Notes: generated by a model not told the origin, from the letters alone. A DNA stretch of 56,433 nt, filler included, from Sphacelaria rigidula (GCA_964200075.2; 3 parts of 3 records of this genome joined end to end with filler, not necessarily neighbours in it), one strand, 5' to 3'; counted from the whole stretch's first letter, positions 12,431 to 37,518 are shown. Numbers and translations are program-made.

Positions 12431-15400
12431 TGCTGATTTGAAACCACCCTTCCCGCCCTCCCCGACAATGGTGAGACACCGATGAGGCAGTGTGGAATTT
12501 GATCTCTGGACGTGCCGATACCAGAAAATGAAGCAACTCGTTGGAGGCTGTCATCCTCATGCATGATGCTTAGTACGCTTCGGACCGAAGAACCTCGGCG
12601 AGATGCAGCCCACCCTTCATGCGATTGGCCGAACACATCACGGCGCTTCGCGCTTGGTGATTGATTGCGAGCCTGGTCCGGCGAAAACCCGGCGTGCTCC
12701 GCCCCGGCTTTGTAGGGATGCGAGGTCGAAGACCTCACGACTACGGCATGCAAGATCATGAGTACACCCCCCTCCTCGACAATGAGATAGGCATACCTCC
12801 TACTACACACTCTCACTCGGTGGTATCTGACGCATTAGCCAGTTGCGGGCGGCTTGCACGATGCTTATGAACACATGAGGGCTGTTATATATCTTGAAGA
12901 GATTCACACCCCTACTAAGTACCCCTACGATAGTAAGAGACACGACCGTTCGTTTGCGACAGGCCAAAACGGTAGGTATACCCCCTCAAGGTCAGCTATA
13001 TTCTTATCCCTGAAAAAGTCATGGGGTTAACCTCCACATATGACTTCACCGATGCTTCGAAGATGCTTCCTCTATGGTCATTCCAGCCATGCACTAAGTT
13101 TTCGACCCTTGATGAGGTTTTGATTACACCGACACAGCCGAACAAAAGCGGGGCAACACTATCCCGCATCTTGGTCTTCATTCAAATCAAACGGTCAGGA
13201 CCCGTCGGTCCAAGTGCGGGAACTTAATTTGGCGCATTGTCTTTTTCGATAACCTGTCGTGAATACGAGTAACTCGAATTGGTAATATCAAATGTGGAAT
13301 TGCCATCTTCTAGGGAAATGAAGGTCAACATCGCAGAAGGCACCTCGGATTCAGCATCTCCGCCAAACTTCCAGTTGGTGTGTCCATGTATTTTCGGTGT
13401 TTAGACACAATTGTGCCCGCGGGACTTTGGCCTCGATGCCCACGGGAGTGCCTCGCGACCCATCGCTGCATATGAGAAACCGAGGTCGCGGTATTCAAGG
13501 TGGAGGCGAAAGGTCTGCGGGGAGGCGTCACCGCAGATCCTCATGTTGCATACCTCTCGTGTCTAGTTAGTGAGTGGCGGGTACCTTCACCGATTTCGCT
13601 CGCACCGTCTCGCGGTGTGGTATTCTTTTGTTGTACGGTAGATGGTGCGGTGTTGTATGAATGTACCCTGTGCTGCAGACCTCGACAAACGTGCCGGAAG
13701 GGATGCAAAGGACCGCTTCGCTGTGGTCTACACGCGCTGCATACAGTGGCCGTCCGTCTGCAATATGCGCCCTGTGATGATCCACACGAGGACGTTTCAT
13801 TTTACCGCTATCTACATGCGAAACTGTACTCATTGTAGCTGTTTTCTGCACACCGGCACCCCCGTTCCCATAGTGTAACTAACCCGTGTTCCTCGCGGAC
13901 CTGTGCGCATCAAAGGTATGGCACAAGTACTGTAAATTGGCGGCTCACGGAGGCGGCGTCGGTGTGCACGCACCATTTTGTTTGTTTTCCCGATGCGGAC
14001 TACTCTACTGTACCTTATGCATGTTTTTTCGAGGGTTTGCACGGCACATGCTAAGCCTAGGTACGATTGAAGCTCGGCTGAATATTCCAGGGATTGGGCC
14101 AGCTGCTGTAGTACGCACCATATAGTGCTATGGGCCAGTTGACTGAATTGCACTACGTCGAAGTAGGACGGTAAGGACAAGGAATTCGTAGACAAAGCAT
14201 CTGTTCTCGGATTCCCCGCGGGCGAACTTTTTTTTTTTTCTGAGGTATATCATGTATAAATACTGCTTGAACATACTGCTCTTCAAGCGTAAAGTAGGAG
14301 AGGCATTTGTATCGTTTTTACCTAGCGAAAGCTTCATGGACCTCTTGAGAGATGAAGAGCAATGACGTGTGGCAGAGGCTATGTGCTGGGATAATCGTGT
14401 ATCACAGCACCGAGCCACTCTATCTTTCGCCCGAGACGATCCGGATGGACTTTCGAAGAGCTGTCGGAGAATGACATTTTTTCTGGACGGTTTGCGTACA
14501 AGTACGTTGTTGCCGGGTGATGTTTAATTGTCGCAAAATTCTATATCGTGTAGTTTTCCAGGCCGTGCGCTTCTTGAGGCTGAACCTGCTCTTGTCTTCT
14601 GTTGTTGACGCACTACGCAGTATAGAAGTATGCCATGACATTCACCAGCCGAAGGCGACCAGAGAGACAGCTGACCGCTGCGGCTTTCGACACTCCGTGT
14701 CCATGCGTTTAGCCACAGTTGCGCCTATGCAGTCGTTCGTGGCATAGCTGCTCGTTGAGGATCCACTCGTCATGAGTTCGATTCAATTTTTCAACCCTTT
14801 GACCGGCAGGGCGGTTCGTCTGTTGAACCGATATCATTTTCACTTGAATAGTGAGCGGGAGACCCAGATCGCTCACCCTCGTGGTCAAAGGGCCAACGAG
14901 CGCACCCCAAAACGACCAATACTTGTAATCCAAACGATTCCGCGGAGATTCACCTGCTTTTTACTTTTATTTTTTCTTCCTACGCCTAATAACACCCCTC
15001 CCCCCTCCTCGAGACGAGCCCGTAGTCTCAAGGGCAAAACCCATTTCTCCCCTGGTAAGTGCCTGGTATTTGGGTACTGCGTATGGGATGAGCGCTCCCG
15101 CGCCGCGTCAACCCCCGTCAAGCTTTCTTTGCGACTCAAGGCCTCACGTTTCAGCAACGGAGATGAGCTCCTTCCCAGAGAAAAAGCCTATCCGGTGGGA
15201 TTCGCGGCCTCAACTCCGCCCGAGCCGGCTGTACGATGTACAGCACCAGTTGGCCAACTGGTGCGCGGCGAGAATCATGTTTCATAGCTGAGGTGTTCCC
15301 GAAACGACAACAAGCACTTGATCGCCTCCATTGTCGGTGTGCTTACGTCTCACGACTGTAGTTCATTTACGACGTCAAGCGGAAACCGGCAGTACAGATT

Positions 15401-15625
15401 CCCACCTTTCACTTCCTATGCGCCCTTCACGTGCGCTGGAAACTGCTCCCCATGATGGAGTGAGTGGTAGGTGCAAAAGGGGTGATCCAATTCTACCACG
15501 TAGGTTGACATTGATTTCCCCAAACATGTCAAAAAGCCCTCCTTTTCACATTTTCACCCGCTTTATTCCCTTCCATTTGTTTACTACACGCACGTTCAAA
15601 AACCACACCATCATCACGCACACAG

Positions 15626-18561
15626 GGGAAGACTTCGGACAAAAGATCGACCTAACGGTACGCATCCGAGAAATTCTCCGCAACTACCCAGAAGGCACGT
15701 CGATTTTGAAGGAGCTCGTGCAGAACGCTGACGATGCCGGTGCAAGAGAGGTTCGTCTATGTCTCGATTTACGGCAACATCCGAGCCAGGGACTCCCCAG
15801 CCCTGCGCTGGAGCAGTTTCAAGGGGCGTCTCTGCTGGTGTACAACAATGCCGTCTTTACGGATACCGACTTCAGGTACGACTAGCAATATGCAGTTGGC
15901 GGCGTCTGTATGCCTCGTTTTTGGCTGAATTCTGGAATTGAGTACGAACGTTGTTACCGTATTGCAAAGTCGCAAATAATTATCAGCATTTTTTGCATCC
16001 TTTTTTTGTATGCCCCGTCAGTGTGAGCGTTCACCACCTCCGGTTTTCGGGAGTTGGTTTCGAGTTAACTTCAAAAGTCGAAGTATTCGAGCTTGAATTA
16101 ATGGGACAGAGTGGATGCTTGCGACATGCCAACAGGCGGGGTACGGTGTGTACCAACGAGAAGCTGGCCAGCCTACTTCAACGCTCGTGATCTTTCCTAA
16201 TGTCTGCTGTGTACCAACCCATGTTGAATATTTTTGAACCGCTGTACAACAACACCCGCGATCTTTTGTACTTCCTCGGTGGTCTTATTTTTGTTGGTGC
16301 TGTCGATGCCGCCGGTCGCTGTGCACATGCTGGTGTTCGGCAGATCCATCCAGAGAATAGGAGATTCCCTGAAGAAGGACACATCCAAGGGCGGAAAGAC
16401 AGGTAATTCGGCGTACTTACGGCGTATTTCAGTGAAAGAGTCAGTTTATTCGGGTAAACTACACGAGTTCTTCGCGGCATCGAATCCGCACAAGCCGCAC
16501 GCGTGTTCTACAGGGCGTAGATGTAACCCATCCTTTGCGTTTTCAACTTACGTTCTGAACAACACGACCTATAGACAGAACGGGTGCGTGTTTATGCTTT
16601 GGTGGATGACACTGACAATTGACTAGGTTCGTTTTACTTTATGAGACAATCAACCACCATGCTCCCCCCCTCCTCCCCTGCTTGTCGATTGCTTTGTATC
16701 AAAAGGTCGCTTCGGCATCGGCTTCAACTCGGTGTATCATCTCACGGAGCTACCCGCGTTCGTGTCCGCTGGAAAGTGGTGCAGTTTTGACCCCCAGGCG
16801 AAGTTCTTGCCCAACGTTAACCCGTCGAACCCGGGGAAAATGGTGGACTTTTTGAAGCACCGCGAGACGGTCGGACGCTACCCAGATCAGGTAAAGATGG
16901 CTGAACGTTTCGAGTTAGACTAATCGGGTGGATCGTCCGTAGTCTGAGCTATTCTTCGTGTGGGGGTAGCCTTTCAGGAGTCACCGCGGGTCCTAAAACG
17001 ATCTTGTGGGACGCGCATGTTTATTTTTCCTTGAAACACTCGGCCGTTTGTCTGTACACCACGCATACGTGGACCCCGCAAACGTGATGAAAAAGGCTAT
17101 CTCACCTGTTCCAAAAATATTTCCGTACCTGTATCCAGATATGACAAATTCCATGTTTGATGCACGACATGTATTGCCCTTCACGTAATTTTTGCCAGTC
17201 AGCTGTGCTGTGCTCGTGGCTGTGCCTGTGTTGTACCACATGTAGCACGGTGCGTGTGTTCTTTTGCTTCTTTCGTTTTCTGTAGGTTGCGTTCAGTGCC
17301 AGGAGGTATAATTACGCTGCAACCCGATCCAGCTTTTCTCACACATTACTTCACCCCCCCTCTTTCTCCCCTCCATTTTAATTTCTCTCCGTCTCCACGC
17401 GGTATGGCTAACTGCATCTGCGGCAGTTCTCGCCTCTGAGGGCGTTCGGGTTCGACTTCTCGTCCCACTTTCCGGGGACGCTGTTTCGGTTTCCGCTCAG
17501 GACGCCGCAGCAAGCGGCCGTATCTCGGCTCTCCAGGCAGTCGCACGGTGTGGAGTCAGTGCGCACGCTGCTGCAGGCGTTTGCCAAGGAGTCGTCGGGA
17601 ATGTTGCTCTTCTTGAAAAACGTGGAACGCATGACGGTGTTCGAGTGGCAGGCGGGACAGAGCGAACCGGTCCAGGTGTCAAGACGTGTAGTCCGCTGTG
17701 TTTATGCGGGGAAGGGGTTAGAGAGAGGATGAAGGGAGTTGTCCTTCTCTGAGTGTACTTTATGCTTAAAAAATGTTGGATGGATCAAACTGTTCGTACT
17801 GTTTTCAAATTCCAACACGTCGGAACCGTACGAGAACATCTAAATCCTGGGCTTCACTGCCCAAGTCAAAATGTGACTTGATCGACGCTTTCCCCCATGA
17901 TACGGTGATTTTTCACCCTGCGTGATTTTTTCTCGCTACTGTCGTACCCAACTCTTCCTGATCCTGCACCGGAGGGGAGCGGAGAGGTGGTGAGGGGAGC
18001 AGAGCAAGCTTTAATGAGTAGGACGGCTTGCAAACCATCGGTTAACGGTTTGGAAGTACAGCCGTTGCCGTGTGACGTGCATACCGAATTCATACATGGA
18101 TCGGTTGAAACCGCTGTGAGCTATGTTCGACACAAAGACTTACTGCATGAAGCGATGTCAAACCCTTTAGGGAACGGTCAACTTTTTGTGCGTGATCGCA
18201 ACGTCACGAGGCCACGAAGTGATGGAAGCCCACTCTTGGCACACGAGGTTACACGGGGATTGCGTAGGGGGCAAGGGAACGGAGCAAAAGACGATGCATC
18301 CGTGACAAGGATACCATTGTCACAAGTGCGTGATTTGGTGTACTGACCTGGGCCGGTACTCTGGTGATGACTGGTAGCGATCCGTGTTTACCCTCATTCG
18401 TCTCCAACAGATACACGACACGTTCGTACCGAGTCCGACGGCAGCGCTACGCCGATCGCGGGCGTTCGCTCTGTCCGCCACGCCGGAAAAACTCGCTGAC
18501 GGCGGAGCGATCAAGGCTGATTATATTATGGAAATCGTCTCCCAACCGAGCAAAGGAAACG
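15626..18561 (+). CDS. Sacsin-like protein, N-terminal GHKL/HSP90-like repeat. Exons 15626-15875, 16344-16402, 16706-16890, 17427-17675, 18411-18561; possible first exon 15418-15466. Cut by the spacer at 18748.
   Basis: Spliced translation EDFGQKIDLTVRIREILRNYPEGTSILKELVQNADDAGA...YNNAVFTDTDFRSIQRIGDSLK...[23 protein letters not shown]...FDPQ...GTLFRFPLRT...LLFLKNV is the characteristic sacsin repeat. All junctions are GT-AG with matching phases. Confidence 0.92.
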
Positions 18562-18747
18562 GTGAGCTTTTGTCTGTTGAGAGGCCCCGTCGTGAATGTC
18601 GTGGCACGCACTGTAGAATAATCTCCGAATACCTCGAAATGTGTTCGACCGTAACGTTTGGAGGGAAATCCCCCCCGCCCCAATGGTGAGATTCCCAGGA
18701 GGCAGTGTATAAGCCATGGCTGTCTCCGGAAGTGGCGATACCAGAAA

Positions 18748-18847
18748 NNNNNNNNNNNNNNNNNNNNNNNNNNNNNNNNNNNNNNNNNNNNTTAATTAAT
18801 TAANNNNNNNNNNNNNNNNNNNNNNNNNNNNNNNNNNNNNNNNNNNN
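18748..18847. other. Artificial assembly spacer N44-TTAATTAATTAA-N44
   Basis: Exactly 100 bp, symmetric, with a linker giving stop codons in all six frames. Identical to the spacer at 37593-37692. Confidence 0.97.
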
Positions 18848-21049
18848 TGCAAGACAGATATGCCACTTCAGCCCCATATTTTGTATGAACCCCAAAATAT
18901 AAAATCGGCTGTTCAATGCTGTGTGTATGGATAGGTCTGGCGTATTTGGTGGCGTTGATTGCGGTGTCTCTGCCGTTGTATGGTCAGGTGCTGGAGGAGG
19001 ATAGCGTGATTGCACCGGGAGGTGTTGCTGTATGTATGTTCCCGTTTTGCCGTATGTTCCCTCTGAAAAAGCGACTGAAGAACGAGCGTTCGTGAATGCG
19101 CAAGCATCTGTGGGGGCGGAGGATCTGTCGCGATGGTCTAGCGGGGGGGATATACCGTTTAGTGGCGAGCTGAGCGGCTCCAGGAGGGTGCGAGCTGTAG
19201 CTGGACTCATGGCGCGAGGAGCGAGTGCTCGAGTTGGAAAGCTGCTGTACGCTGTGGACGGGTTTGTGGTTCGAGTGCTGTTGTTTGTCGGGAGCTGGCT
19301 GGACGACTATAAAGAAGGCATTACCTGAGGTTCTTGCTGTTGTGGTGAGCGCCGCGTTGGGTGCTGTTGTTGAGGAGCGAGTGCTGTAGTGATTGAGTGC
19401 TTGTTGAGAAGGAGGAAACACATTATGACTGGTATTCGCGAATCGTTTTGAATATGGTTGCAGCTTGTTATTATGTGGTTTGTGGCCATGCTTGCGCATG
19501 AAACATTGTTGTTAAGCGAATATGATCGTATCGCGTGTGCAGGGTAAAACTCTGGCTTTCACGTGGATATTTGGCATCAGTGTGTTGTGCTGATGTGGTT
19601 GGCACGGACGATGCATAGTGGTTGCTGCGAGGAAGGTGACATTGCATGTGCTGAGTGAAATATCGGCATGCATGTGCGGATTTTCATATGCTAAGTGGAA
19701 TTTTGGCAGGTATTTGCGAATGTTTGCTCGAAAGGTACTGATATATATGGTATCTGGTGGTGACGACCCAGGGTGGGGCAGTTTCCAATATACTGCTGTG
19801 TTAGCGTGAAAATGAGCTGAAACATACGAAATGCGTAGGCTCGTCGTATGTGAGCAGGTATGATGCGAGTGCTTCCGGTGGTTGAAGATAAAGATATCAT
19901 GCGCGCATACATGGATGATTTTTGACCGTGGCACGTTTTCGTATGGATTGTCACTTGTTTGAACGAGCACGTGATTGGTTCTTCGTTCATGTCAGAAGGA
20001 GCATGTGGATGTGGGATCCATTTGTTCAAAGAACTGGTGCAGGGGGACTGCAAGAGTGTCGAGGGATTCAATATTTTTACATTTTGGCTGATGCACGTAT
20101 GGGATATGGCGGTCCAAGATCCAAACGAGATATAGAAATGTCTGGGATTTGCTCGACAACAAGAGTTCGAGAACGAGATCACGAGGGGTGATCAATGATG
20201 GCGGAGGTCGAGNNNNNNNNNNTTGGATTAGTATGCATGACTTGAATAGCAGTTTGAGTCATGGCTTTCCTTTGATTTTCTTAATGAAATGATGGCACGT
20301 TGAAACATTGAAGCTTTGACGGCGGGGAGGCATGCGATGCATACGTTTCTCACGGTGTTGCAGAAGCAAGAGGCCAGGTGCGTTTGAGACGTGTTGGGTG
20401 CTCATTTCCTTTTAGCGTGAGGATGATGTATCAGTTGGCTTTTGCACTCCGTTGCGCAGGTGTTGAACTACAAAGAGTGCATTTTGTATTGTGGAAAGAA
20501 CCACCTCTCAGATAAGAGGGACGACGAGTCACGAATGCTCTGGAAATTGACGTTCGCTGACATTTCCGGTTCTGTGCTGTCAAGTCAAGACACTTGTTTT
20601 GGGCGAAAATTTGAGAATTTGGCGCTAGCTATCGCTTTGTAACTCGAAGCGGTGCAAGTAGTGTGATTGCATGTTCATGATGGACGATATTTTCTTGGGA
20701 TCTCTTACTTCGGAAGTGGGGCAAGCTTGTATGGAGCTGTTGTCGAAAGCAGCGGAAGAGATTGCCATTCTTTGCGGAAAACGACGGTACTATCAGGCAC
20801 CAATGATGTCTGAGTTTGTCAAGCTCTGATGTATCTACTTGTTGGTAGTAGAGAGCCTTGGGGGTGCTGTAGACTCTAGCCACTATTGTCCTGTCCTCCT
20901 GTACTATGCTGAGGGTGAATATATGAATAACTAAAGCTGCTGAAGTTCATGTGCCCGTGATGGGAGTAGTCCACATGGCGATCTGATCTTGAGTGACAGA
21001 AGTTTATAAGTCCACATGGCGATCTGATCTCGAGTGACAGAAGTCTATA
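18848..21049 (+). mobile_element. 3' part of LTR element D (internal region, PPT and LTR 20868-21049), 5' end lost at the spacer
   Basis: 18910-20867 is colinear and homologous with ~28390-29909. It ends in PPT GGGGGTGC followed by a TGTAGA...TCTATA LTR. There is a 10-N gap at 20213-20222. Confidence 0.75.
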
Positions 21050-21497
21050 ACAAACGTTCATTAAGTCCGCTGGAAGGCGGTAGGTCCGCTAATAAGCAGC
21101 TGACACATCAGGATGAGGAAGTCTGCAAGCCTGATCAGCTTGCAGCAAAAAAGACCAGCTCTAGGCGTTTTAACGCCACGAGGAGTTTGAGAAGTAGAGC
21201 CGAGGAGATTCTGAGGCAGTGCTAGGGCGGTCTGTGATATCGTCCGTGCGTGAGGTGCGGAAAGCTTCATCGACAGCTGGCGAGCCCGAGAGCGTTCCAG
21301 TAAAAGCGGCGCAATTACTGCCTGGTGGAGCCGGCGAGAGTTGCTCCTTCCACGCTTGGCCAGGTACGGTCAAGAAGAGGAGTCTGAGGACTACAAACAC
21401 GTGGTGAGAACCACGTGAGGAAGAGGTGCTGTGGCCATTGTCGTTGTAAGGTGGTACAGCGCGTCTCGGTGTAAGGAGAGAGTTGTTGTTCCTGTGA

Positions 21498-21968
21498 GTG
21501 GGAGATGACTTCGTTTTTCAAAAAAGGCGGTGTGGAGTGCTGCACTGCTTGCTGACCGAAATGTACGAGGTGCAGGAGTATGTCGGGGTGGACGGCCATG
21601 TTGTTCGTGCACCGCAACAATATGTTGTCATCGATGGTCGCGCTGTCCGTGTACGACTTCTGGATATACCCTTCTACGGTCGCAAGTTCTCAAGTGATAA
21701 ATCTGCTCAGTTTCTGCGGAAGTATGAGAAATACCTTCGTGAGGTGCATGCAACGAACGAGCGTCAAACACGCTGGCCCGTTGTTGAGGGGTCAGCGATC
21801 TCTGACCTCATGCCCGCACATATCGAGGACTGTCTATGTAACACATTTTTGGATGGTACGAATGATGTTGGGCAAGAGAAATTGCTCATTGCGCTGCGCA
21901 AGCATGCATCTTATGCATCGCCGAGTGCGGTGCAAGATAGTCTGAAAGGTAGGCGGCGGTGGAGATAG
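21498..21968 (+). pseudogene. Truncated Gag-like ORF of element C
   Basis: IPFYGRKFSSDKSAQFLRKYEKY...DLMPAHIEDCLCNTFLDG...LLIALRKHA aligns by eye with element A Gag LPEYGRVFSEQASRRFYQRYRDY...ALVPKHIQNCVSDTIFNG...LLQGIARHA. Confidence 0.75.
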
Positions 21969-21989
21969 GCCCGAGATTTTGACGGGTAA

Positions 21990-22239
21990 CGTAGAGTAGT
22001 CTCCACCTACAGTATCCATCATGTAGATATGGGGCGGATCCTGCAGTGATTGTTCGGAGGATGACTATTTGATGCGTAACATATCGTGTTCGTGAGGAAA
22101 GCCCATGAAGCCTCCTACCGGTTCACGAAGACTGCCGTTTGTATAACGGCTTGAAGTCTTGAAGTCTTTGGAGCCCGTGGCTGGGAGGAAGCCTCTGGAG
22201 CAGCACTGTAACCTTGTCCCGATTGCAGGCAGGTTCACA
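21990..22239 (+). repeat. 5' LTR of element A
   Basis: (C)GTAGAG...GGTTCACA, a direct repeat of 27543-27790. Confidence 0.93.
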
Positions 22240-22417
22240 ATAAACGTTTATGCAGGAAACTTGTCGTTTCTGGATTAGGTTTTGGACGTCGCACCCGACT
22301 GTTGGTAAAAAGTGAAGACGCTCACGTTGAATAGCAGGGGGGTGGGGGGAGCGGCGTAGGGGAGGCGCAGGCCTCACGAATCCAAGGCGACTGCGGTGAC
22401 AGGAGGCTGTTGGAAGG

Positions 22418-23410
22418 ATGGCAGCGCGAAGGAAAGGGGGCACCAGCGAGACGGTTGATGAGGTGAAGTTTGCCGTAACCGAATTGACCTTTGGTGGATC
22501 CTTGAAATTGCCCGAATATGGGCGAGTATTCAGTGAGCAAGCTTCCAGACGCTTTTACCAAAGGTATCGCGACTATGAGGAGGCAGTGGGGAAAAGTACC
22601 CAAGGCCGGTCGGTAAAGTGCGCACTCTTGACCATGCAAGCGTTGGTGCCAAAGCACATCCAGAACTGCGTGTCTGACACCATCTTTAACGGGTTGCCAC
22701 TCGACGAAGACGAATTGCTGCAAGGGATTGCACGCCATGCCAAATGCTGGATCGATATGGAACTTGATCTTTCCGAAGCTGCAGCAGGCGTTGAAAAGGC
22801 CCTTGCCGCACGGTCTGAACCAACTGCAATGGGTCGAGTAGAAGGGCAATGGAGTTCATTACAGGAGCACTTTGCGGAAAACGCAGGTGCTGAGTCCGTT
22901 TTCCTCGAATCTGACCGTACGTTCAAGCCTGGTCCAGGACGACTTATTACCAGAGCTATGGTCGCCGGCCTGACCCCACCTGAGTTCAAGAATAAAGTTC
23001 AAAATATAGTTCATATGAAAAGATACTGGAAAGAGAGCCCGAAAGTGGTTTATGAGGTAGCTCGTGACTTGGCGGGAAAATGGAAAACTGTTGAGGAGGT
23101 CGACAAACACCGCCGACAGCAACCGCAACCTAGGCGAAAAAGCGGTTCACAAGGCTCCAAAAAACTGACATCGCACGCCGGCGCCGCCGCTGCGGCCGCA
23201 GCAGCAGGTAGTGGCGGCGCAGGTAGTGGCGGTAAGAGCTCGAAAAAGCCCCACAAACCTGGTCCGAGCTATGTTGGTTGTTTCGAGTGTGGCGATGAGG
23301 GCCACTACAAGAAGGACTGTCCCAAAGAGAGCACACCTGCGGCCGCGGTGAGTGCGTCCGGTGGGCGAGCAAAGTCGTCGCCGCCGCCGCCGCAGCAGCA
23401 GCAGCAGTAG
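22418..23410 (+). CDS. gag: Gag of element A with CCHC zinc knuckle
   Basis: 330-aa ORF with CFECGDEGHYKKDC (CX2CX4HX4C). The TAG stop lies inside a CAG run and the frame continues into the protease, so gag-pol was probably one ORF originally. Confidence 0.9.
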   Translation: MAARRKGGTSETVDEVKFAVTELTFGGSLKLPEYGRVFSEQASRRFYQRYRDYEEAVGKSTQGRSVKCALLTMQALVPKHIQNCVSDTIFNGLPLDEDELLQGIARHAKCWIDMELDLSEAAAGVEKALAARSEPTAMGRVEGQWSSLQEHFAENAGAESVFLESDRTFKPGPGRLITRAMVAGLTPPEFKNKVQNIVHMKRYWKESPKVVYEVARDLAGKWKTVEEVDKHRRQQPQPRRKSGSQGSKKLTSHAGAAAAAAAAGSGGAGSGGKSSKKPHKPGPSYVGCFECGDEGHYKKDCPKESTPAAAVSASGGRAKSSPPPPQQQQQ

Positions 23411-26400
23411 CAGCAACAGGTCCATGGTCAGCGGGGGGGCGGTAAAGGTCCTGCTCCCACACGGGCTGTTTTCCCAGGGGATGGAACGCAAGGGGGTACC
23501 AGTAGTGGGGATAGCATGGTGCCGCCCCAGCCTTCCGCTCCAGCTCCTGCAGCTCAACCCCAACCGGCGGCGGGACCGGCTCAGGAGTGGACGTCTCAGA
23601 CAGTGTCGGTATGGCGGGGTCTGCACAGCGCTGAGGTTGCAGATTTACAGGCTGAGGGTGTAATAGTTGACCGCAAGCAGTGATGCTGCCGGGCAGACTT
23701 GTCCGTTCCTGGTTCCACAGTTAAGAAAGTCTGCCCTGTTACTGCAGTTTTGGATTCGGGGGCTGGCATCACTATCATGTCTGAAAAAGTGGCGGCCCAG
23801 TTGCAAGCAGTGTTCCCTGATGTGTCCGTTGTCACCAGTATGGCTCGTGCACACCCGTTGAAACTAGCTGATGGTAATGTTCGGAGTATGCAGTCGAAGA
23901 CGTGCCTAGTGCGGACCGCTCTACACACCAGCTGGGGGACGGTGGTGTTGGATCCGTGTCACTATGCTGTTATTATGCCAGGTGCCGATGATATGGTGAT
24001 CCTCGGGAGCGGTACGCTTGAAGCCATGGGCATTGACGTGTACAGTGGGCTGGACGTATGCGCACGCTCAAGACACGCGTTGGTGAGAGGTGTAGATACG
24101 CCTGAATCCCGAGAATGTAGGCGTGTGAGCATTGCGATTGAAGCGCTACAGGATCCAGGTGGACAAGAGGAGCTTGTGGATCCCTCCGTTGAGCGATTAA
24201 TGTCGCGTGGTCCCGAGATGGACATAAATCCGGAGGAGGAGCTGGCAGACGTCGTGTTGCACTGGATCATGTAGTACAGGCGGCTGCGGACAAGGGTATG
24301 TCGGCGAGCGGCGTTGATAAGCTTCGGGAGGTTGTTGGGCGCCGTGTCAACGCTTTCCGGCGAGCACTGCGCGGTGATCCGCCTGCTCGAGTAGAGCCAT
24401 TGAAGGTGAGATTCAAACCTGGGGCTAGGGCAGTCAAGGCGAGCCCGCGGGTGTATTTCCCCGTGAAGGCAACGTGGTTAGCGGGGTGTATGGCAACGCT
24501 GGTGGCGCTTGGGCTCGTATTTCGCAGCTTACGGGCGGTGTGGGTGAGTGCGGCCATGGCGACGCCGAAGAAGGGCAGTTATCGACTGGTGAGTGATTAT
24601 CGCGCGGTAAACAAGCAGATTGAAAAGGTTCCGAATGTTATGCCCAACCAAGAGGCGGAGATGATCGATTTGCTGGGCGCTGTGTGTTTTGGTAAGATTG
24701 ATATGCTGCAGGGGTACTGGCAGATGCCGTTGGCGGCTGATGCACAAGAAATATTTATGATCGCGACTCCCGAAGGTCTGTTTACCCCTACATGGGTGCC
24801 GCAAGGAGTGTTGAATGCGACGGGGTACTGCCAGGGCATCATGGCAGGATTATTGACCGGACTTCAGTGCACAGTATGGGTGGATGATATCTTGTGGTGG
24901 GGTAAACATGAGGATGATTGTTGCGTACACTTGACAAGATTTTGGGCCATTTGGAGGATGCTGGTCTTTTTGCGGCTGCGCACAAGTGCATGTTCTACGA
25001 CACACAGATCACGTGGTACGGAAAGGTCTTTTCAGGTGGTCACGTGGCTCATGACCGCGAGAGACTGAGCGGGTTGGCCAGTCTTAGGCGCCCGCGCACA
25101 GCAGACGAGCTTATGCAGTTCCTGTAGGCGGTAAACTGGCTGAGAACGTCCCTACCGCGTCTGGCGGAGGTGGTGGAGCCGCTGCGGGTATTACTGGAGG
25201 AACACATGCAGGGGAACGTGCGCCGTACCAAGCGAGTGGCGTCAAACCGGACAATCGAGGATTCAGCATGGACGTCCAGGCGTGCTCAAGCGTGGCACGA
25301 GGCCCAAGATTTGGTGGCGCATGCCGTCGCTTTGTCATATCCCAAGCAGGGGTACGGGGTGCTCATGTTTCCAGACGCATCGGATCTACACTGGAGTAGT
25401 TTTATTACGCAGGTGCCCGATGATGAACTGGGTGGTACATCGGCGATGGAAGACATGAGCCATGAGCCCATGGGGTTTCTTAGCGGGACGTTTCGTGAAG
25501 CGCAGGTTCGGTGGGCTACGGTGGAGAAGGAAGGCTATGCAATCACTGCTACCCAGAGGCTCGAGCATTGGAAGGCTGTGCTCGGGCAGTATGATTGCTC
25601 CATCAGGCACATTGCTGGTGAGCGCAACTGCTGGGGAGATTTATTGTCAAGGTAGGTAAACGTTCCGGCGGTGTCTGTACGTGCTGCGGCCGTGTTTGCG
25701 GGCGGTCAGCCTGATGAAACGCTGCCGTCGAAGGACGCTATTCGTGAGCCCCAAGAACAAGCTCAGGCCGGGTTAGGAGTGATGGATGCTAGAGCCCCTA
25801 TCTTTGCAGCAGCTGTTGGGCGAGTTTCAAGAGACAGTGAGGGTTTGTTTCGCGTGCATGTAGCAGGGCGGAATGTGTTGTGGATCCCGCCGCGAGCAAG
25901 AGAGCTGCAAACACGCTTGATGGTGTGTGCTCACATGAAGGGGACGATTCATGGGGGTGTTGTGGCGACACTGCAGCGGCTGCAAGAGTATTGCTGTTGG
26001 TTTCAGATGGAAGCTCATGTGACGGATGTTGTGAGGAAATGCTTATATTGTCTGGACTCGAAAGCGGATGAGATGGCCCTGCGGCCATTAGGGGAGACAG
26101 TGCATGGCACACGGCCCGGTGAGGTGATGCATTTTGATTATCTGTACGTTGGCGAAAGTGGACCGCTGGGCGAGAGCGGCCTGGATGAAGGCGACGGGTA
26201 CAAGTAGAGATTTTTATTGATGTATGATCTGTGCAATTTCGCGTGGTTGGAGCCCACCGAATCTTGTACAGCTGCAGCAACTGTGCAGCATCTGCTGGTG
26301 TGGTGCAAGGCGTGGGGTCCGCCCGAGGTCTGGGTTAGTGATGCAAGCATTGGAGAAGGCGCTGAAGCTGGACAGGAGGTTTGCGGTTCCCAACTCGCCG

Positions 26401-27262
26401 TGGTCAAGTGGTACGTGTGAAAGGATGATGCGGGAGGTTGTCCGCACTTGGAAGGCCATGCTGCAAGAAGAGAGGCGCGACGTTCGTGACTGGGTGGGAC
26501 TGGTGCCTGCCGTACAGTGGGCATTGAACACGGCATTCCGCGAGCGCTACGCCAGTACGCCATACCATGTGATGTTTGGACGGGCACCGCGCACAAGGTT
26601 TTCAACCCTGGCATCGTCGACTGGCGGCGAGTGGCGACTTGATGTGCTGGATGAGGACATGCTGTGGGAGAAGGTGACGTCAGTCGTGGAGGCGCAGCAA
26701 GCGTTGCAAAAGGAGGTGGCCCAGCATGTTGAGAAGACTCGTGAACTGCAATGACGTGTAGCTAGTAAGAAACAGTTGCCAAATTTCATGGTGGGTGACT
26801 ATGTGTTGGCTGCGAGGGTTAGGCGCTCAGGTACAACGCCAAAACTCGGAAGTACGTGGACAGGACCGTGGAGGATCGTGGCAGCGGAGCATCAGCATGT
26901 GTACGAGATTCAGAATATCGTCAACGGTGAAATGAAGGACGCGCATGTCTCCCGTCTACCGTACCACGCGGACAAGGAGCTGGCGGGCACTGCGGATCTG
27001 AAGGAAGTGTTCCAGCATGCGTTTGCGCAAGGAGAATTCGAGATGGAGGCGATCGTTGACTTGTCCGAGGCTCAAGACGGCGATGGGTTCGTTGTACACG
27101 TGGAATGGGTAGGTTTCCGCAAGGATGAGAGCTCGTGGGAGCCTCTGAAAACCCTTTTTTTTGGAAGGAGCCCCGCAGTTTGTACGTTCTGAATTGCGTA
27201 AGTTGCGACTAACAAAGCAGGTACGGGCGCGTTTGCTGGCTAAGTATGGGCTCAAGCTCTGA
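23411..27262 (+). pseudogene. pol: Disrupted pol of element A: protease, RT, RNase H, integrase, chromodomain
   Basis: PR AVLDSGA. RT YRLVSDYRAVN, KIDMLQGYWQ, VPQG, VWVDD. RH MFPDAS...EKEGYAI...GERNCWGDLLSR. INT CAH..H...CLYC, HFDYL, WVSD, GTCER, WTGPW. Chromodomain EFEMEAIV...VEWVGF...SSWEP. Multiple stops, frameshifts and deletions. Confidence 0.93.
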
Positions 27263-27542
27263 TTGATTGGGTTTCAAGCTGTGCTTCGCTGTTGGCGTAG
27301 TTCATGGATTCTACTATGCAATTTGGTGTACGTACGTTGAGTATACCGCTTGGTTCCTGTTTGCTTGACATGTTGAAGTAGTTCGTGCTTGTGTGTTAAG
27401 ATTATACTGGGGGGGGCATCGTGATAGGACCTGATGCGGTCTGATAATGCTTGTCTCTTGTTGACATCGTAGGGTATTGTCGGTGTCTACTGTTTTGTAA
27501 ATTCGCTTTTTACTTCAAGTAGTGCAAAGTTTTGGAGGGTGC

Positions 27543-27790
27543 TGTAGAGTAGTCCACGTACAGTATCCATCATGTAGATATGCGACGGATCCTGGATTGA
27601 TTGTTCGGAGGATGACTATTGGATGCGTAACATATCGTGTTCGTGAGGAAAGCCCGTGACCCTCACTTCTGGTTAACGAAGACTGCCGTTTCTATAATTG
27701 CTCGAAGTCTTGAAGTCTCTGGAGCCCGAGACTGGGAGGAAGCCTCTGGAGCAGCACTGTAACCTTGTCCTGATTACAGGCAGGTTCACA
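27543..27790 (+). repeat. 3' LTR of element A
   Basis: TGTAGAG...GGTTCACA, preceded by a PPT. Confidence 0.93.
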
Positions 27791-27978
27791 GCAACAAGGC
27801 GACAAAACATAGGCCTGTCCGAGTGGACAGGCACGACAGCGCTAGAGGTGTCGCCGCTATTGCCGTCAAGGAGCAAGCCGGACAGGAGGTGGCGGCTGTA
27901 GCGAATATTGGTGATACTGCTGCTGCGGTTGGCGATGTTGAGAGGGCGAGGCCTACATGGGCCAATTAGCAAGTACTG

Positions 27979-28602
27979 GTGGGCGGTGATCCAAGTTGCT
28001 TGTTGCCGCCGGACCACCCAGTAGCTGGAAATACTCCTTGCATGCTCGAACCTGCAGGGGGGTGTTATTCGCGTATTGCGAGCGAGCAGGGTGAGCTTGG
28101 AGCTTGCCGTGCTCATGGTCAATCTATCTGCGCCAGTGACATGGCGGGAAATCGTTCAGATGACTCGCAGGGGTGTCTGCTTGAAGGACAGGTGGATGCC
28201 GGGTTGGCGGAATTGCCGCCGGAGCAGCGCGTAGCTGTGGACACGCCTTGTATGATCGAAAAAACAGGGCCGTGTGACCCGCGTGAAGCGGGTACGCAGA
28301 GCGAGCTGCAAGCTCGTGATGCTGCTAGCGATCACAATTCGGACGGCGACGACGAGCATCGCGTGGTGTTGGAGTGGTCGTGTGCACTGCTGTATGCATG
28401 GATAGGTCTGGCGTATTTGGCGGCGTTGATTGCGGTGTCTCTACCGCTGTACGGTCAGGTGCTGGAGGAGGATGGCATGATGGCACCGGGAGGTGTTGCT
28501 GTGCGGGACAGTATGGATGTTCCCGTTTTACCTCTTGTTTCCTCTCAGTATGATCGTATCGCGTATGCAGGTGGAAATTCTGGCGTACGCATGGATATTT
28601 AG
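27979..28602 (+). CDS. Extra ORF of element C with two ~35-aa repeats and a predicted transmembrane helix; function unknown, possibly decayed
   Basis: Repeats LPPDHPVAGNTPCMLEPAGGC..R.A..QGEL and LPPEQRVAVDTPCMIEKTGPC..R.A..QSEL. The hydrophobic segment ALLYAWIGLAYLAALIAVSLPLY is also present in element D at ~18916-19030. Confidence 0.45.
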   Translation: MGGDPSCLLPPDHPVAGNTPCMLEPAGGCYSRIASEQGELGACRAHGQSICASDMAGNRSDDSQGCLLEGQVDAGLAELPPEQRVAVDTPCMIEKTGPCDPREAGTQSELQARDAASDHNSDGDDEHRVVLEWSCALLYAWIGLAYLAALIAVSLPLYGQVLEEDGMMAPGGVAVRDSMDVPVLPLVSSQYDRIAYAGGNSGVRMDI

Positions 28603-31233
28603 GATATGTGTGTTGTGCTGATCAGGTGGCACGGACGATGCATGGTGTCTGCTGCGAGGAAAATGGCATTGCATGTGTTGGGTGAAATGCTGGCATGCAT
28701 GTGTGGAATGTTTGCTTCAGTATGTTACTTGTGCGCATGATATCTGGCAAAGAGTCAGAGTGAGGCACTTTTCAATATGCTGCTTTATGCTGGATGAGTT
28801 GAACCTCGTATATATTCCTGTTCACACAGACACGCGGCGGCGTTCTCTGTGTGCAGTTCGTAGGTACTGACTGTAGGAGATGGTGATTGCTGCTGCTGGC
28901 GTCGAAATGAGCAGTGTCTACAAAATGCGTTGGCTCGTATGTGCGCAAGGAAAAAACGAGTGTTTCTTATGGTCGAAATGAGTGATATTTAGCTATGGAA
29001 GGTCTTCTGATGGAATAGCTCATTTCCGTTTGGGAAGATCATGTGGATGGAGTGTCTGTTTGTCTAAGAGAGCGGTGCAGGTGAGCTGCAAGTCTGTTGG
29101 GAAATGAGCTGCATTTTACATCGCGGTTGATCGACCGATGGGTTATCACGGTCCCAAATCCAAGTTGAGATATTACATCTGGGTGCTTTCTGGGATGTAA
29201 TATCTCGAGTTTGAGAACGACATCACTACGAGTGATAAATGATTGCGGAGGTCGAGGTCCGTTTACCGTTGTTGTGTTGGCATACATGACTCGAAAAGGG
29301 TTTTGAGTCATGGCTTTTTTTTTCAGTATGCTCATGAGTTGAGTGGCGGAAATGAAGCTATGAAGCTTCCTCGAAGAAGAGGTGTGCGATGCATACGTTT
29401 TCACGGAGTTGAACAAGCAAGAGATCAGCTGCATTCTAGACGTGTTAGATGTTCATATGATTCTAGTTTCAGGTATATCACTTGGCTATTGCACTCCGTT
29501 GCGCAGGTGTTGAACGTACGAAAGAGTATTTTGTACGATTAACGGTATCGAATGCGAGAGAAGAATTGTCACAATGTCGTTTGATTTTGAAGTTCGTTGA
29601 CGTTTGAGATTTTTCTGCCGGTTTGGAGTCAGGAGACTTGTTCGCGGCATGGATTTGAGAATTGGGCGTCAGCTATCGCTCCGTGACTCGGAGCGATGCA
29701 AGTAGCGTGATTGTGTGTTCATGATGGACGTCTTGGATCTCTTGCGAGTTGTTCTGACATTGGACAAGCTTGTATGAGTGTTATCGTATACTGCGGTAGG
29801 GATTGCCACTCTTGATGAAGACTGACGGTAAACTTCGGCAACAACGATGTCTGAGTTCTTCAAGCTCTAGGTTGACTACTTGTTGGTGGTAAGCGAAGTT
29901 CGGGGGTGCCGTAGACTCCGGGCAACATTGTCACCGGTACATGAATGCTCTTGAGAAAATGCATAGCAGACATAGGCTGGTTGATGGATCAGGGATCTGA
30001 GAGTATGATCGGTGGACTCCGCGATGCATGATTTTTGCACACGAGGTGCGCAGGTCACTTCTGGTTAACCAAGACATGCTGTATGTATAACTGCTTGAGC
30101 CTCGAAGCCTCTGGAACCCGTGACAGGGAGGAAGCCCCTGGAGCAACACTATGACCTTGTTCTGGTTTGAGACAAGTCTATACGCCACAGTGGCATCGAT
30201 TGCATATTTCAAAAGTAGTCCCGTGCTGCGATCAATTCGACCGTAAATCTACGTGCAGCCAACGGTTTGCTCCTACAAATATTGGAGTTTGCCCGTTTCA
30301 AACTCAAGCTTGGCTAAACAACTCTCTCGTCGAAGCACTGAATTAGTCGTCCCGTCACTCGGCCCTGACTCGTTGCTACTTGACAATTAGTGTATGTTCA
30401 AGTTTGGAGCCACTCTGTATTGAGCGAACCAAACATGGTCTTTTCCTTCCCTCATGGTGGCAATTATATCCCAGCCATTTATCGAGAATATGATAGCTCC
30501 ACATCGTTGCAGCTTTCTACTGATCAACACTAAGAAACGTTTCCAGTAGCATCCATGCATCGAGATGCTGATGAAATTCCGGTAATACTGGTTGAGCGGG
30601 TGACAATCAAAGCACAGCATGAGGCAGCCGGTGAAGCTTCTATCGAACATCGACGAGCGACCGATTGTCCAACGAACCTCGTCTGTCTCTTGAGAAGAAA
30701 TGTCACAGCCTCATAAACCAAAAGTGTTTGAATCATTTATTGTCGCCCGCACATTTGAGACTTAGTCCGTTACAGACGGATCCGTGGCAGTGCAAATCGT
30801 TAATCTGTCGTTCCACGAAGTGCCATTACCAACAAAAATAGTCTTGGGTAATCTCATCACTGTATCTGTAGTACACCCAGAGCAAATACACGTCAACGCT
30901 GTAGCGACAGTCCCTCGAGCAAAATCTGAAGTGCAAAAATTTGATTCGATTTGATGGATTGATTGTCGCACTTCAACTGACCCCCCAGGGTTCCAACCGT
31001 TGTCGCATCAGAGACGTACCAAAAAAAAGCAAAACTGAAACATTCGCTGAAGAAAAGAAGGGACAGAAAAAAGTCGAACAGAACCACATAATACACTAAC
31101 ACGTGAAAAATAAAAAGTCAACAAAAGCAGAGCACAGAAAGAGATGGGCGACCTTAAACAACAAAAAAGGAAAAAAGAGCAAAAAATGGACTAAAATAAT
31201 TAAGAAAGGAAAACACCCAAGGGGTTCAGGGCA

Positions 31234-34200
31234 TATAGAAGCCCTCCTGGACTCAGAACAGGGTCACAAGGGCTTCCTCCCTCACTAGGGCCTGGAGACT
31301 TCAAGACAGTTGTTGTTCATAAACACACAGCCTTCATTATCGGAAGTAACCACATGAGTGAAGCATGTGATGTTCAAGTCCACATAGTCTGCCGATCAGA
31401 CTCGCAAGTCCGTCAACGAATAGAAAACGCCTACAGTAGATTGTTCCAGTTGTAGATCATCATGAGCCTTCACGTACGTGTACTAGAGGTGGACTACTCT
31501 ACAGCACCCCCAAAACACCGCACTACTCGAAGTAGAAAGCGAGTTTGACAAACAGTAGACACCGACGAACAAGTTCATGCTACCTTTGTCCGCCTGTTAG
31601 TGACACATGACCATGCTACGTCATGTTCTCAAAGAAGACGATCATTCGCAAAACGCTGAACATCAACACTTGAACACAGCGTCTCAATCGCATTTAGTGA
31701 AATCAATAATTCATTCAACGGCAATTTCCAGTCGTGGCATGCTCACACAAAGCAAACGCGCCGAGGATAATATCATTTCAAACCGTAGCATTCGATCATA
31801 CCATGCACTCAAAGCTTGATACCGTACTTTGCCTACAACCGTGCCCGCACCTTTTGACTAAGTTCCAACTGACGAACCTTAGAACAAGTATGCGATGCTT
31901 CTTCCAGAAAAATGGGCACACTCTCCACATTGTTTATTTTTCAGATGCGAAACACCATCTATGCACTTATCCAAACAGATGACAAGCCATCAAAGATGTA
32001 CCACAGTAAAAAATCACTGTATTCGCGCACGATTTCTTTCATTGTCAACCTCTGGAAATACTCACGTTATACTTGTTCACATGCAAGCCTAGGTATTTCG
32101 TAGTTTCCGCTCATTTTCACGCCAGCAGCAGCAATCAACATCTCATACAGTCAGTGTCTGCAAACCGCACAAAGATTATTCTACTTTTTGCGCGAACAAT
32201 AATATACTAGCTTTATTACATTCAGCACACAGCAGTGTACAAAAAAACTGCCTCACTCTGACTCTTCATCAGACACCATGCACATCAGTCATATCTGCAT
32301 GCTCATATTTCACCCAGCAGCTTCTTTGCAGAAACCACCATGTATCATGCGTGCCAACCAGCGCAACACAACAGGCACGTCCAGGAACCACACCACCACC
32401 ACCTACAGTCGTCCACAAAACGATTCAGGTATACAAGTCACAATATGCCGTTATCCGCGGCGGCTTGTACTGCCTCCTCCGGCGCAACATCAAGCTCAGC
32501 AAGCTCTCTTTTCCGGGGATATGCTCATCGCCGGACTTCTCAACAACAACCGCTCGACTGAGGAATAAACGAGCTACGCCCGACCTCCTGGTTGCTGTAA
32601 AGCGTCAACCGCGGTACTGACACGCCGACAGTCCGTAAAACCAGGCGCGTTTACACCTCGCACCGAAGTGTTCCTTGGACGTGCACAGGCACCCAAGCTA
32701 CTGTAGACGTCAATGCCCAGCGCCTCCAGCGTAGGGCTCCCCATGATGATCACATCATTTGTACCCGGCATGACCGCGTTTGAACATGGGTCCGGCACAA
32801 CCGGTCCCCAGCTGGTGTGTAAAGCGGTTCGGACAGGGCACGCTTTCTGCTTCACGCGCTCAACATTGCCGTTAGCCAGTGTCACCAGCTGTTCATCAAC
32901 CATCGGTGTGACCACTCGAACATCTGGAACAATAGCTTGTAATTTCGCCGCTACACCCACTGATATCGTCGTAATTCCAGATCCCGAGTCTAAAGTGGCC
33001 TTGACCGGACAAACACCCTTTGCCCCTGCACTCGGGACAGACAAGTCGGCGAGATACCACCTTTCCTTGCTATCTACTTGCAGACCCTCAGATTGAAAAG
33101 TTGACACCTCACCCGCTTTGAGCGGTCTCCATGTTGGCACCGCCTCAGATTTCGAACCCGGGAACGAGTGCGATGACATGGTCTGCTGCACGCCACCAGT
33201 AGAAGCGACCGGTTCTGGTGGCAACGTCGCCCCCCCATTGAAAGACTTTGTCCATCGGCTGAAAAGACAGCCCTTGTAGGGGCGGGACTCGTGCCCCCTC
33301 CGCGAGGTACCTGTCCAGGGCCCTGCGACAGCTGCTGTTGTTGTTGCTGCATGTCGCCAGCCTTCGTCTGCCCACCGTCACTACGTTTTGTAGCAGCAGC
33401 TTGGCCTTCCTGCTTGCAATCCTTCCGGAAATGGCCCTTGTCTCCACATATGCAACATCCTGCATAGTTTGGGCCTGGTGTCGGGTTTTCCCGGAACTGG
33501 CAGTCCCATTTCCACTGCTCGCCGTTTTTCCCCCATTTGGTTGGTGCTTGCTTCCGGAAATCCCGCTGCCACTGCTTTGTTTCAGCTGCGGCTGCTGACG
33601 GTGCTGCTTATCCGCCGCTTCCACAGTCTTCCATGCCTCCGCTGCTTCCCGAGCCGTGTTATACACAAGCCCAGGGTCCTCCTTCCACCCCCCCTTCATG
33701 TTCAACATGTTGAGGACTTTAGTTTTTAATTCGGGGGGGGTCAGTCCATTCAACATTTCCCGAGTTATGAGTTGAGCGGGTCCTGGTTTGAAATTTGCAT
33801 CATCGAGAAACGCACGCCCGGCGCTAGCATTCTCCGCAAAAAATTCCTCCAGGGCACCCCACTGCCCTTCTACTCTTCGCATTGCAGTTTGCTCGTTGCG
33901 GGCCGCCAACGCTTTCCGCACACCAGCAGCAGCAACTGAAGGATCAATCTCTTCATCCTGCCAACATTTCGCATGTCGACCTAGTGCCTCCTTGAGATCG
34001 TCTTCGTCAAGCACGGATCCGTCAAAAATCGTGCGTGGCAAACACGCACGGATGTGCTTCGGCACCAGTTCAGTAACAGTCAGTAAGACGGCCTGCATGC
34101 TACGTCCTTTGTTGTTCATTTTGACCGCCTCTTCATACTCGACGTGTTTCTGATAAAAACGTCGGGACGCATTTTCGCTAAAATGCCGTGCCTACTCTGG

Positions 34201-34745: not shown

Positions 34746-34749
34746 GGCA

Positions 34750-37049: not shown

Positions 37050-37510
37050 TGTAGACTTGTCTGAAATCAGGACAAGATCACAGTGCTGCCTGCTCTAGAG
37101 TCAAGCAGTTACACAAACAGCTGTCTTCATTAAATCAGAACTGACCCTTGTTTTGATCTCTTAAACAAAATGCTACGCATTTAATATTCATCCTCCACTC
37201 CATTGTCACAAGATCCAAGCTGATATCCATATGCTACCGTACTCCTCATGTCAGAAGTGTTACTGTACCGTCTCTACAGCACCCCCAAGCTACGTTTTAC
37301 TAAACGGTAGAAAAACGAGCTTGATCATCAGTAAACACCGAGAATCACAGTCATGCTTTCTTTGTCTGCCTGATTGTGACACACGACCATTCACTGTCAT
37401 GTGCCAAAAGTGAAATAATAATTTGCACAACCCTGAACATCGACTCGAAGACAACGTCTCAATCGAACCCAGTGAAGTCAATAATTCAATGTCATTTTCC
37501 AGTATACTCA
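37050..37510 (-). mobile_element. 3' end of another family member (element E): LTR 37050-37278, PPT and adjacent internal region
   Basis: TGTAGA...TCTACA termini. The LTR end matches the reverse complement of the element C 3' LTR. PPT at 37279-37286. 37290-37510 resembles 31510-31730 of element B. Confidence 0.8.
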
Positions 37511-37518
37511 CTAATACT

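Follow-up and report, generated by a model that had tools for sequence, protein, structure and literature searches.

A perfect 12-bp palindrome is located immediately after the 5' LTR of two diverged retrotransposons in the brown alga Sphacelaria rigidula. It lies exactly at the position of a primer-binding site, and no TGG is found there. The most likely role of this motif is that of a primer-binding-site equivalent for tRNA-independent priming; in other words, a tRNA 3' end is probably not what starts reverse transcription in this family. As for the primer, the element's own RNA, acting in cis or in trans, is the leading candidate, to which we give a probability of roughly 0.4. The palindrome itself is a real feature and more than a chance occurrence. 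In the following, the window means the whole stretch of DNA that was analyzed (56,433 nt, filler included).

Few LTR families fit none of the three recognized primer types. If the palindrome itself supplies the primer, this would be a new replication mechanism; if a host RNA primes, it would be a new primer class. Either way, these abundant elements would be scored wrongly or overlooked by annotation pipelines that require a tRNA site, and in brown algae they may include the centromere-associated ones.

Organization of the elements and their LTRs

The window contains N44-TTAATTAATTAA-N44 linkers at 18748-18847 and 37593-37692. This means that three or more separate contigs have been joined in it, and genes on the flanking pieces are not shown to be neighbors of the retrotransposons. 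The elements are on a separate 18.7-kb piece, 18848-37592, which is made of retrotransposon sequence. On the first contig, three open frames at 15322-17729 (+) match consecutive parts of the Pfam Sacsin domain (E values from 4e-25 to 5e-17); judging from these matches, they are a split or intron-containing host gene.

Seven LTR copies, named A5, A3, B5, B3, C5, C3, and D, were recognized (Table 1). Their limits were determined by self-BLAST, a MAFFT alignment, an nhmmer profile, and the 4-bp target site duplication (TSD) TGCC around element B. The TGCC duplication flanking B fixes the LTR limits to the base. The termini are TGTAGA...TCTACA; in some copies, TCTATA or TTCACA is found as a decayed form of the 3' terminus. 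A polypurine tract (PPT) ending in GGGGGTGC or GGAGGGTGC precedes every 3'-type LTR. The region 27479-27557 comprises the conserved pre-LTR block and the start of the LTR; it aligns over 80 nt with the corresponding block of B at 89% identity.

Table 1. Positions of the LTRs, internal regions, and junction motifs in the window
Feature	Position	Strand	Remarks
A5, 5' LTR of element A	21990-22239	+	First base C instead of T; ends ...GGTTCACA
A3, 3' LTR of element A	27543-27790	+	90% identical to A5; followed by GCAACAAGG, not by the motif
B5, 5' LTR of element B	34466-34745	-	Self-BLAST, MAFFT, nhmmer, TSD
B3, 3' LTR of element B	31234-31503	-	92% identical to B5; TSD TGCC outside B5/B3
LTR C5	20867-21049	+	Degenerate; preceded by PPT CTTGGGGGTGC; 42-nt tandem duplication
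LTR C3	29910-30182	+	Preceded by PPT; no motif after it
LTR D	37050-37278	-	Perfect termini TGTAGA...TCTACA; preceded by PPT; no motif after it
Conserved pre-LTR block ending in PPT TTTTGGAGGGTGC	27479-27542	+	Self-BLAST, MAFFT
Element A gag-pol, frameshifted	22400-27192	+	Pfam matches
Element B internal region	31504-34451	-	Deleted relative of A
12-bp palindrome ATAAACGTTTAT, element A	22240-22251	+	Starts directly behind the 5' LTR
16-bp palindrome TAATAAACGTTTATTA, element B	34452-34467	-	Core 12-mer ATAAACGTTTAT at 34454-34465
Degenerate motif copy ACAAACGTTCAT	21050-21061	+	Directly 3' of LTR C5
LTR block CGTTTGT, A5	22136-22142	+	97 nt before LTR end; 7 bp (1 G-U) with motif bases 1-7
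LTR block GTGTTTAT, B5	34561-34568	-	95 nt before LTR end; 8 bp (2 G-U) with motif bases 1-8

The domains of element A are in the order CCHC zinc knuckle, aspartic protease, reverse transcriptase (RT), RNase H, integrase (IN) zinc domain, and chromodomain, in a reading frame broken by frameshifts and stops. The chromodomain match in this decayed copy scores 21.5 bits, which is below the Pfam cut-off of 25.1; PF00385 is found on four of the 26 listed proteins (P0005, P0011, P0023, and P0024). On the basis of the domain order, the direct TG...CA LTRs, the PPT before the 3' LTR, and the short TSD, A is classified as a decayed Ty3/gypsy (Metaviridae) element with a chromodomain. Element B is 61% identical to A in the part comprising gag, protease, and early RT, and has lost the RT-RNaseH-IN part. 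It must therefore use the enzymes of a relative, which explains the shared cis signals.

A 292-residue frame bearing the RT matched polyproteins of approximately 1650 amino acids at 55-65% identity, and two named Ectocarpus proteins are among the matches. The family is highly repeated in the contigs of four sequencing runs. The preliminary description had taken the elements to be LTR retrotransposons of one family group, and the LTR pairs, the domains, the PPTs, and the TSD all agree with this assignment.

The elements at 18848-30182 (+) are in tandem, with LTRs shared between neighbors. The order is an internal part, C5, a 940-bp unrelated internal part with a PPT-like end, A5, element A, A3, a 590-bp stretch, another internal part, and C3. 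The internal parts at 18910-20866 and 28381-29909 are 73-91% alike. C5 carries a 42-nt tandem duplication (95% identical) at 20968-21050, which covers the end of this LTR. Just downstream of LTR D, an RT fragment of another retroelement was found at 36064-36438 (-) (Pfam RVT_1, E value of 4.6e-6). Within 18000-38000, the GC skew changes sign at 30 kb: it is strongly positive before this point (18-30 kb) and negative after it (30-38 kb), following the orientation of the G-rich sense strands of the elements.

The palindrome at the LTR/leader junction

In all three junctions at which an LTR is followed by leader-type sequence (A5, B5, and C5), the motif begins at offset 0 from the LTR end. The first bases after these 5'-type LTRs are ATAAAC in A5 and B5 and ACAAAC in C5. 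The motif is absent after the four other LTR ends (27790, 30182, 31234, and 37050). In element B the palindrome extends to 16 bp, and its outer TA is formed by the final two bases of the 5' LTR. In C5, approximately 30 nt after the motif align with the leader of B (ATTAAG...CCGCTGG). The preliminary description had reported the motif at these three positions, its location in place of a primer-binding site, the lack of TGG, and its absence after the LTRs ending at 27790, 30182, and 31234. All of these points were reproduced, and the end at 37050 behaves likewise.

The exact 12-mer occurs in the window only at the junctions of A and B, against a chance expectation of approximately 0.003 per window by simple arithmetic. 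When up to two mismatches were allowed, six matches were found in the whole window, compared with 1.52 expected; this number was reached in one of 100 shuffles. A given 12-mer is perfectly palindromic in approximately 1 of 4096 cases, again by arithmetic.

As had also been claimed in the preliminary description, the motif is kept in diverged surroundings. Between A and B, the identity is 60% in the LTR, 70% in its last 60 nt, and 59% in the 60 nt that follow the motif, whereas the motif itself is identical at 12 of 12 positions. It should be mentioned that equally conserved blocks of 10-13 nt are also present elsewhere in the LTRs of A and B. Accordingly, what distinguishes the motif is its exact primer-site position together with its perfect dyad symmetry, and not its conservation alone.

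The sample of junctions consists of two well-supported ones (A and B) and one degenerate one (C5), and all copies are old and broken. Little weight can be put on C5, since its LTR is degenerate and the following 940 bp have no match in either A or B. In addition, one read contig has a C3-type LTR end that continues directly at position 22237, three bases short of the motif of A. This shows a third LTR type adjoining the motif region, at the level of the junction and not of the motif letters. Among the variants listed, another read contig has ...TCTATA, then CTTG, and then ACGTTTAT.

Compensatory changes that keep the palindrome had been suggested as a check, and the few variants available so far do not support them. 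The two substitutions in C5 break the pairs 2-11 and 3-10, and ACGTTTAT breaks the left arm; the full palindrome is thus kept in neither of the two variant copies (C5 and one contig among those listed). Both might simply be dead copies.

With junctions as few as two or three, the conservation might also be a chance or passenger effect, the motif being just one of several conserved blocks that a few related dead copies have in common. The equally conserved blocks described above fit such an effect, and a 12-nt run has a probability of approximately 0.002-0.014 per position at 60-70% background identity (arithmetic). This explanation is nevertheless very improbable, because palindromy and the exact primer-site position are jointly unlikely by chance and because a third LTR type adjoins the motif region at 22237.

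The symmetry of the motif would also agree with a function at the level of DNA or the transcript, as the binding site of a dimeric host factor or as a poly(A)-type signal. Dyads with a central ACGT, as in this perfect dyad, resemble the sites of dimeric DNA-binding proteins. In addition, (A)ATAAA spans the junction between LTR and leader, and in B AATAAA is formed there on both strands. However, neither a factor site nor a poly(A) signal explains the offset of 0 in three diverged copies, and with a poly(A) signal immediately behind U5 the genomic RNA would end prematurely. A role of this kind has little probability. The exact abutment on U5 is a need of a priming site and not of a protein-binding site or a dimerization site, which argues for the involvement of the motif in priming. 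The identity of the motif amid diverged LTRs and leaders was counted in the same direction, and so was the similar conservation of other reverse-transcription signals, namely the LTR termini and the PPT block.

At 30951-30995 there is a short repeat of very high copy number, with a summed word depth of up to approximately 118,000 in the sequencing runs. Elsewhere this repeat continues ...GGTCACATGATAAACGTTCC, which contains nine bases of the palindrome.

Candidate primers

Priming by fragments of host tRNAs is the type found in copia, Ty5, and Bianca. LTR retroelements are recognized to use three types of primer, namely whole tRNAs, half tRNAs, and self-primers, the last being cut from the 5' end of the transcript (PMC6317226). 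Priming by a tRNA 3' end does not agree with the junctions described above, none of the three 5'-type LTRs being followed by TGG. No tRNA gene was detected in the window by ARAGORN, and no Rfam match was obtained in the window or at 21900-22500. The leader contains a TGG-bearing block (TGGATTAGG / TGGAAGAGG); as a displaced tRNA site it was rejected, since it differs between A and B and is at least 30 nt from the LTR. With up to two mismatches allowed, the iMet-type motif given in the GalEa paper had chance-like matches only.

A host RNA other than a tRNA 3' CCA end could also bind at the motif. Candidates would be an internal or half-tRNA fragment, an organellar tRNA, or a small RNA ending ...AUAAACGUUUAU-3'. 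The site is identical across subfamilies whose LTRs and leaders have diverged, as a fixed primer would give; in the established retroviral scheme, plus-strand synthesis recopies the site from the primer in each cycle. Since self-primed families can co-vary primer and site, this identity fits a host primer better. A length of 12-13 nt is usual for such sites, as is that of the stretch shared by B and C, which reaches 18 nt if two transitions are allowed, and half-tRNA priming is a known precedent (PMC6317226). Furthermore, B has ATTAAGAG 9 nt downstream of the motif, which is identical to nt 1-8 of the FunCo1 site, a tRNA-Lys-type site said to match an internal region of tRNA-Lys (PMC5445492). 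This match, however, is short, does not adjoin the LTR, and is absent from A. A perfect 12-nt palindrome would be unexpected for a site merely mirroring a host RNA. The motif is also AU-rich, unlike the stems of cytosolic tRNAs, which are not. The negative ARAGORN and Rfam results speak against a host RNA as well, and the tRNA-like heads of a SINE-like repeat in the window (see below) showed no complement by eye. Taken together, a host primer is possible, with about half the weight of the element's own RNA.

In Tf1, the site is matched perfectly over 11 nt. Self-priming of this type requires a site matching the 5' end of the transcript (PMC4600332). The preliminary description saw no full complement of the motif inside the LTRs. 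This is correct: Watson-Crick complements within the LTRs, either to the 12-mer or to the first 18 nt, reach no more than 5-7 nt, as they do in shuffled LTRs, and the 5' LTRs of these decayed copies have no perfect complement corresponding to the first approximately 11 nt of the transcript. RNAduplex gave no pairing that was consistent between A and B. What had been overlooked is a partial complement of the Tf1 type that includes G-U pairs.

This complement appeared when G-U pairs were allowed and pairing was required to start at motif base 1. The only anchored runs of at least 6 bp were then 7 bp in A5, 8 bp in B5 and B3, and 7 bp in D, and all are in one homologous LTR block. In the LTR A5, CGTTTGT is the sole site that pairs over 7 bp with motif bases 1-7. 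B3 has the same block sequence as B5, and D has TGTTTGT. The differences among the blocks of A5, B5/B3, and D are transitions that preserve the pairing. Each of these runs has a P value of approximately 0.05-0.09 against shuffles, and the best anchored run is only 4 bp in A3, C3, and C5.

When the RNA of B was begun at this block, the minimum-energy and centroid folds both paired GUUUAU with AUAAAC, whereas the RNA of A begun at the same block folded in a different register. The start of the RNA in these folds was chosen by the analyst. The energies of the folds comprising the leader and the LTR block were no better than those of shuffles. The pairing predicted with the G-U block is thus a hint of self-priming in cis and not a demonstration.

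A 7-nt match of TCCTGCA at LTR position 49 of A with TGCAGGA just after the motif was rejected, as it is not found in B and has a P value of 0.13. Right after the palindrome, a hairpin of 6-7 bp can be drawn in A (22252-22273; AGGAAAC..GTTTCT) and in B (34432-34453, minus strand; AGGAACC..GGTTTCT). It contains one compensatory change from A-T to C-G, and the minimum-energy folds recover it inconsistently.

For the 20-mers at the junctions, homodimers were predicted at -12.3 kcal/mol in A, -16.1 kcal/mol in B, and -5.3 kcal/mol in C5, and the monomer folds are close to 0. These values would also suit a signal for dimerization or packaging only, like a retroviral dimer initiation site, with priming elsewhere or via an unrecognized site. 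Palindromes in retroviral and Ty leaders act in this way (PMC5445492), and the small hairpin with one compensatory change that follows the motif in A and B, as seen by eye, might belong to such a signal. However, known dimer sites lie in hairpin loops beside a primer site (PMC5445492), and the palindrome here is not predicted to be in a loop. No other candidate primer site is present: TGG does not occur next to the LTR, and the TGG blocks farther downstream are not the same in A and B. A dimerization site, in addition, has no need to abut exactly on the LTR end. We regard a function in dimerization alone as unlikely.

The element's own RNA has to be considered in two possible arrangements, both of which place the start of minus-strand DNA synthesis at the palindrome; priming at this site, the partner RNA, and a cut are what we infer. 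In the cis route, which would resemble that of Tf1, a transcript starting at the LTR block YGTTTRT, approximately 95 nt upstream, would fold onto motif bases 1-7 or 1-8 and be cut. In the trans route, the self-complementary 12-mers of two co-packaged genomes would pair with each other, a cut would leave a 3'-OH, and this end would copy U5-R of the partner. Intermolecular pairing followed by cleavage, as put forward in the preliminary description, would be coherent as a mechanism of this kind. The cut might be made by the RNase H of the element at the edge of the RNA duplex, and the resulting 3'-OH would copy the U5-R of the partner as minus-strand strong-stop DNA. Such a trans mode would be a fourth mode of priming, needing neither a tRNA nor a complement in R, and it is a long shot.

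Several observations point to priming by the element's own RNA. Palindromy, together with the predicted homodimer and the nearly unfolded monomer, was counted in its favor. So was the chromodomain, since Tf1/sushi and Tcn1, which have no tRNA site, are chromoviruses whose self-priming has been either predicted or demonstrated (PMC6317226, PMC4600332), and so was the confinement of the anchored G-U runs to one homologous block in A5, B5, B3, and D. The weakness of the LTR complement, with its short Watson-Crick runs and the P values given above, was counted against self-priming, as were the other register of the A fold and the fold energies equal to those of shuffles. The loss of the palindrome in both variants among those listed, the age of the copies (90-92% identity of LTR pairs), and the presence of only two solid junctions also stand against it.

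Comparison with known systems and further copies

The closest precedent, by analogy of position and form, is the palindromic "Conserved Hairpin Site" of the fungal GalEa Copia elements (PMC5445492, 2017). These elements have no tRNA site, and a 9-bp box, CTGATCAGT or CTAATTAGT, directly follows their 5' LTR; when the final A of the LTR is included, the box becomes a 10-bp palindrome, ACTGATCAGT or ACTAATTAGT (PMC5445492). A second, inverse-complementary box is located 12-41 bp downstream and forms a hairpin with the first (PMC5445492). The authors report no LTR complement and no fitting model, and they propose that the box replaces the primer-binding site (PMC5445492).

The present family is like GalEa in having a conserved palindrome directly after the 5' LTR, without a tRNA-type site, which is kept across diverged copies. 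The palindrome of B takes in the end of the LTR (its last two bases), as in GalEa, whereas that of A starts after the LTR end. Unlike GalEa, which are Copia elements of ascomycetes, the elements here are Ty3/gypsy, with the order RT-RNaseH-IN and not IN before RT. The palindrome is also longer, 12-16 bp instead of 10 bp. No second box was detected, as no 7-mer of the motif recurs in the leaders of A, B, and C and no such hairpin appeared in the folds. The non-canonical nature of the site, as put forward in the preliminary description, agrees with its position and with the lack of TGG; a precedent exists, however, since a palindrome occupies the same place in GalEa (PMC5445492). The present family is a second, unrelated case of a perfect palindrome exactly at the primer site, here in Ty3/gypsy elements of a stramenopile alga. 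If the trans mode is true, it would also explain the palindromic site of GalEa, and it would have arisen at least twice. It would then serve an abundant brown-algal lineage of chromodomain Ty3 elements, possibly a centromere-associated one. A bivalve TRIM paper also notes features similar to those of GalEa (PMC6934838). The published full texts that were searched yielded no report of the motif, nor one of brown-algal or Ty3/gypsy elements with a palindromic primer site.

The family shares with the self-priming chromoviruses Tf1 and Tj1 (PMC4600332), sushi, and Tcn1 (PMC6317226) the chromodomain of Ty3/gypsy type, the lack of a tRNA site, a site abutting on the LTR, and a partial complement in the LTR (7-8 bp with G-U pairs). 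Unlike in these elements, there is no perfect complement to the first approximately 11 nt of the transcript, and the site of Tf1 is not palindromic (PMC5445492). Tcn1 chromoviruses are related to Tf1/sushi, and self-priming has been predicted for them in plant surveys (PMC6317226); one Tcn1 element was reported without any recognizable site (PMC2864245). With retroviral dimer initiation sites, the motif has in common that it is short, perfectly palindromic, located in the 5' leader, and able to pair two genomic RNAs. Those sites are in a hairpin loop beside the tRNA site (PMC5445492), whereas the palindrome here occupies the position of the primer site itself.

ECR-1 and ECR-2 are centromeric Ty3 retrotransposons of Ectocarpus and other brown algae (PMC11541908; preprint 10.64898/2025.12.07.692804), and the ECR-1 lineage has been reported to be outside the chromovirus clade proper (PMC11541908). 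The present family resembles them in the polyprotein of its relatives, approximately 1650 amino acids with a C-terminal chromodomain, and in its own 4-bp TSD (PMC11541908). In ECR, intact-type and degraded families share a block of approximately 64 bp that includes the polypurine tract; the corresponding alignment here is the 80-bp one with 89% identity. This likeness is at most indirect evidence of membership in the ECR or an ECR-like lineage. Among Ectocarpus proteins, the closest share 55-57% identity with the RT fragment. Of the passages retrieved from the ECR papers by term look-up (PMC11541908; 10.64898/2025.12.07.692804), none concerns the priming of reverse transcription; PMC11541908 has no mention of tRNA, and the preprint none of primers or palindromes.

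Further copies were looked for in several collections. A conserved LTR 20-mer gave one match in metagenomes, which was dismissed as a chance match in a gene-like stretch of a 96-kb contig. A scan of genome contigs with the polyprotein alignment found two short contigs, contaminants of bacterial MAGs, neither of which has the 5' end. The same MAGs contained a gag-protease contig cut at residue 43 and more distant elements, and no LTR/leader junction of the family. The motif search in the MAGs gave fewer matches than its reversed-pattern control, none of them related. In viral contigs, the protein search gave no match, and the three AT-rich contigs found with the LTR end plus the motif are unrelated.

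One of the contaminant MAG contigs (L016; 7292 nt; positions 2556-2985) represents a circularly assembled, more distant Ty3/gypsy element with 25-30% identity. Its PPT resembles that of the family (GGGGGGTGA directly followed by TGTAAA), and it likely has an ordinary site (...CCACA T TGGCGTCGAATCGG), the LTR limits being putative. This suggests that a lineage related to the palindrome family may use a tRNA 3' end.

Two further repeats were observed in the window. A SINE-like repeat is present in three copies, 82-95% identical, at 37519-37592, 38713-39036, and 46480-46780. It has a tRNA-like head (GGCTCAGTTGGTAA...GGTTCGATTCCCGG), which was called by neither ARAGORN nor Rfam, and an A-rich tail. 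Judging from this architecture, it is probably a tRNA-derived SINE. At the end of the window, a 127-nt direct repeat (55970-56096 and 56307-56433) is 100% identical between its two copies, which are 337 nt apart.
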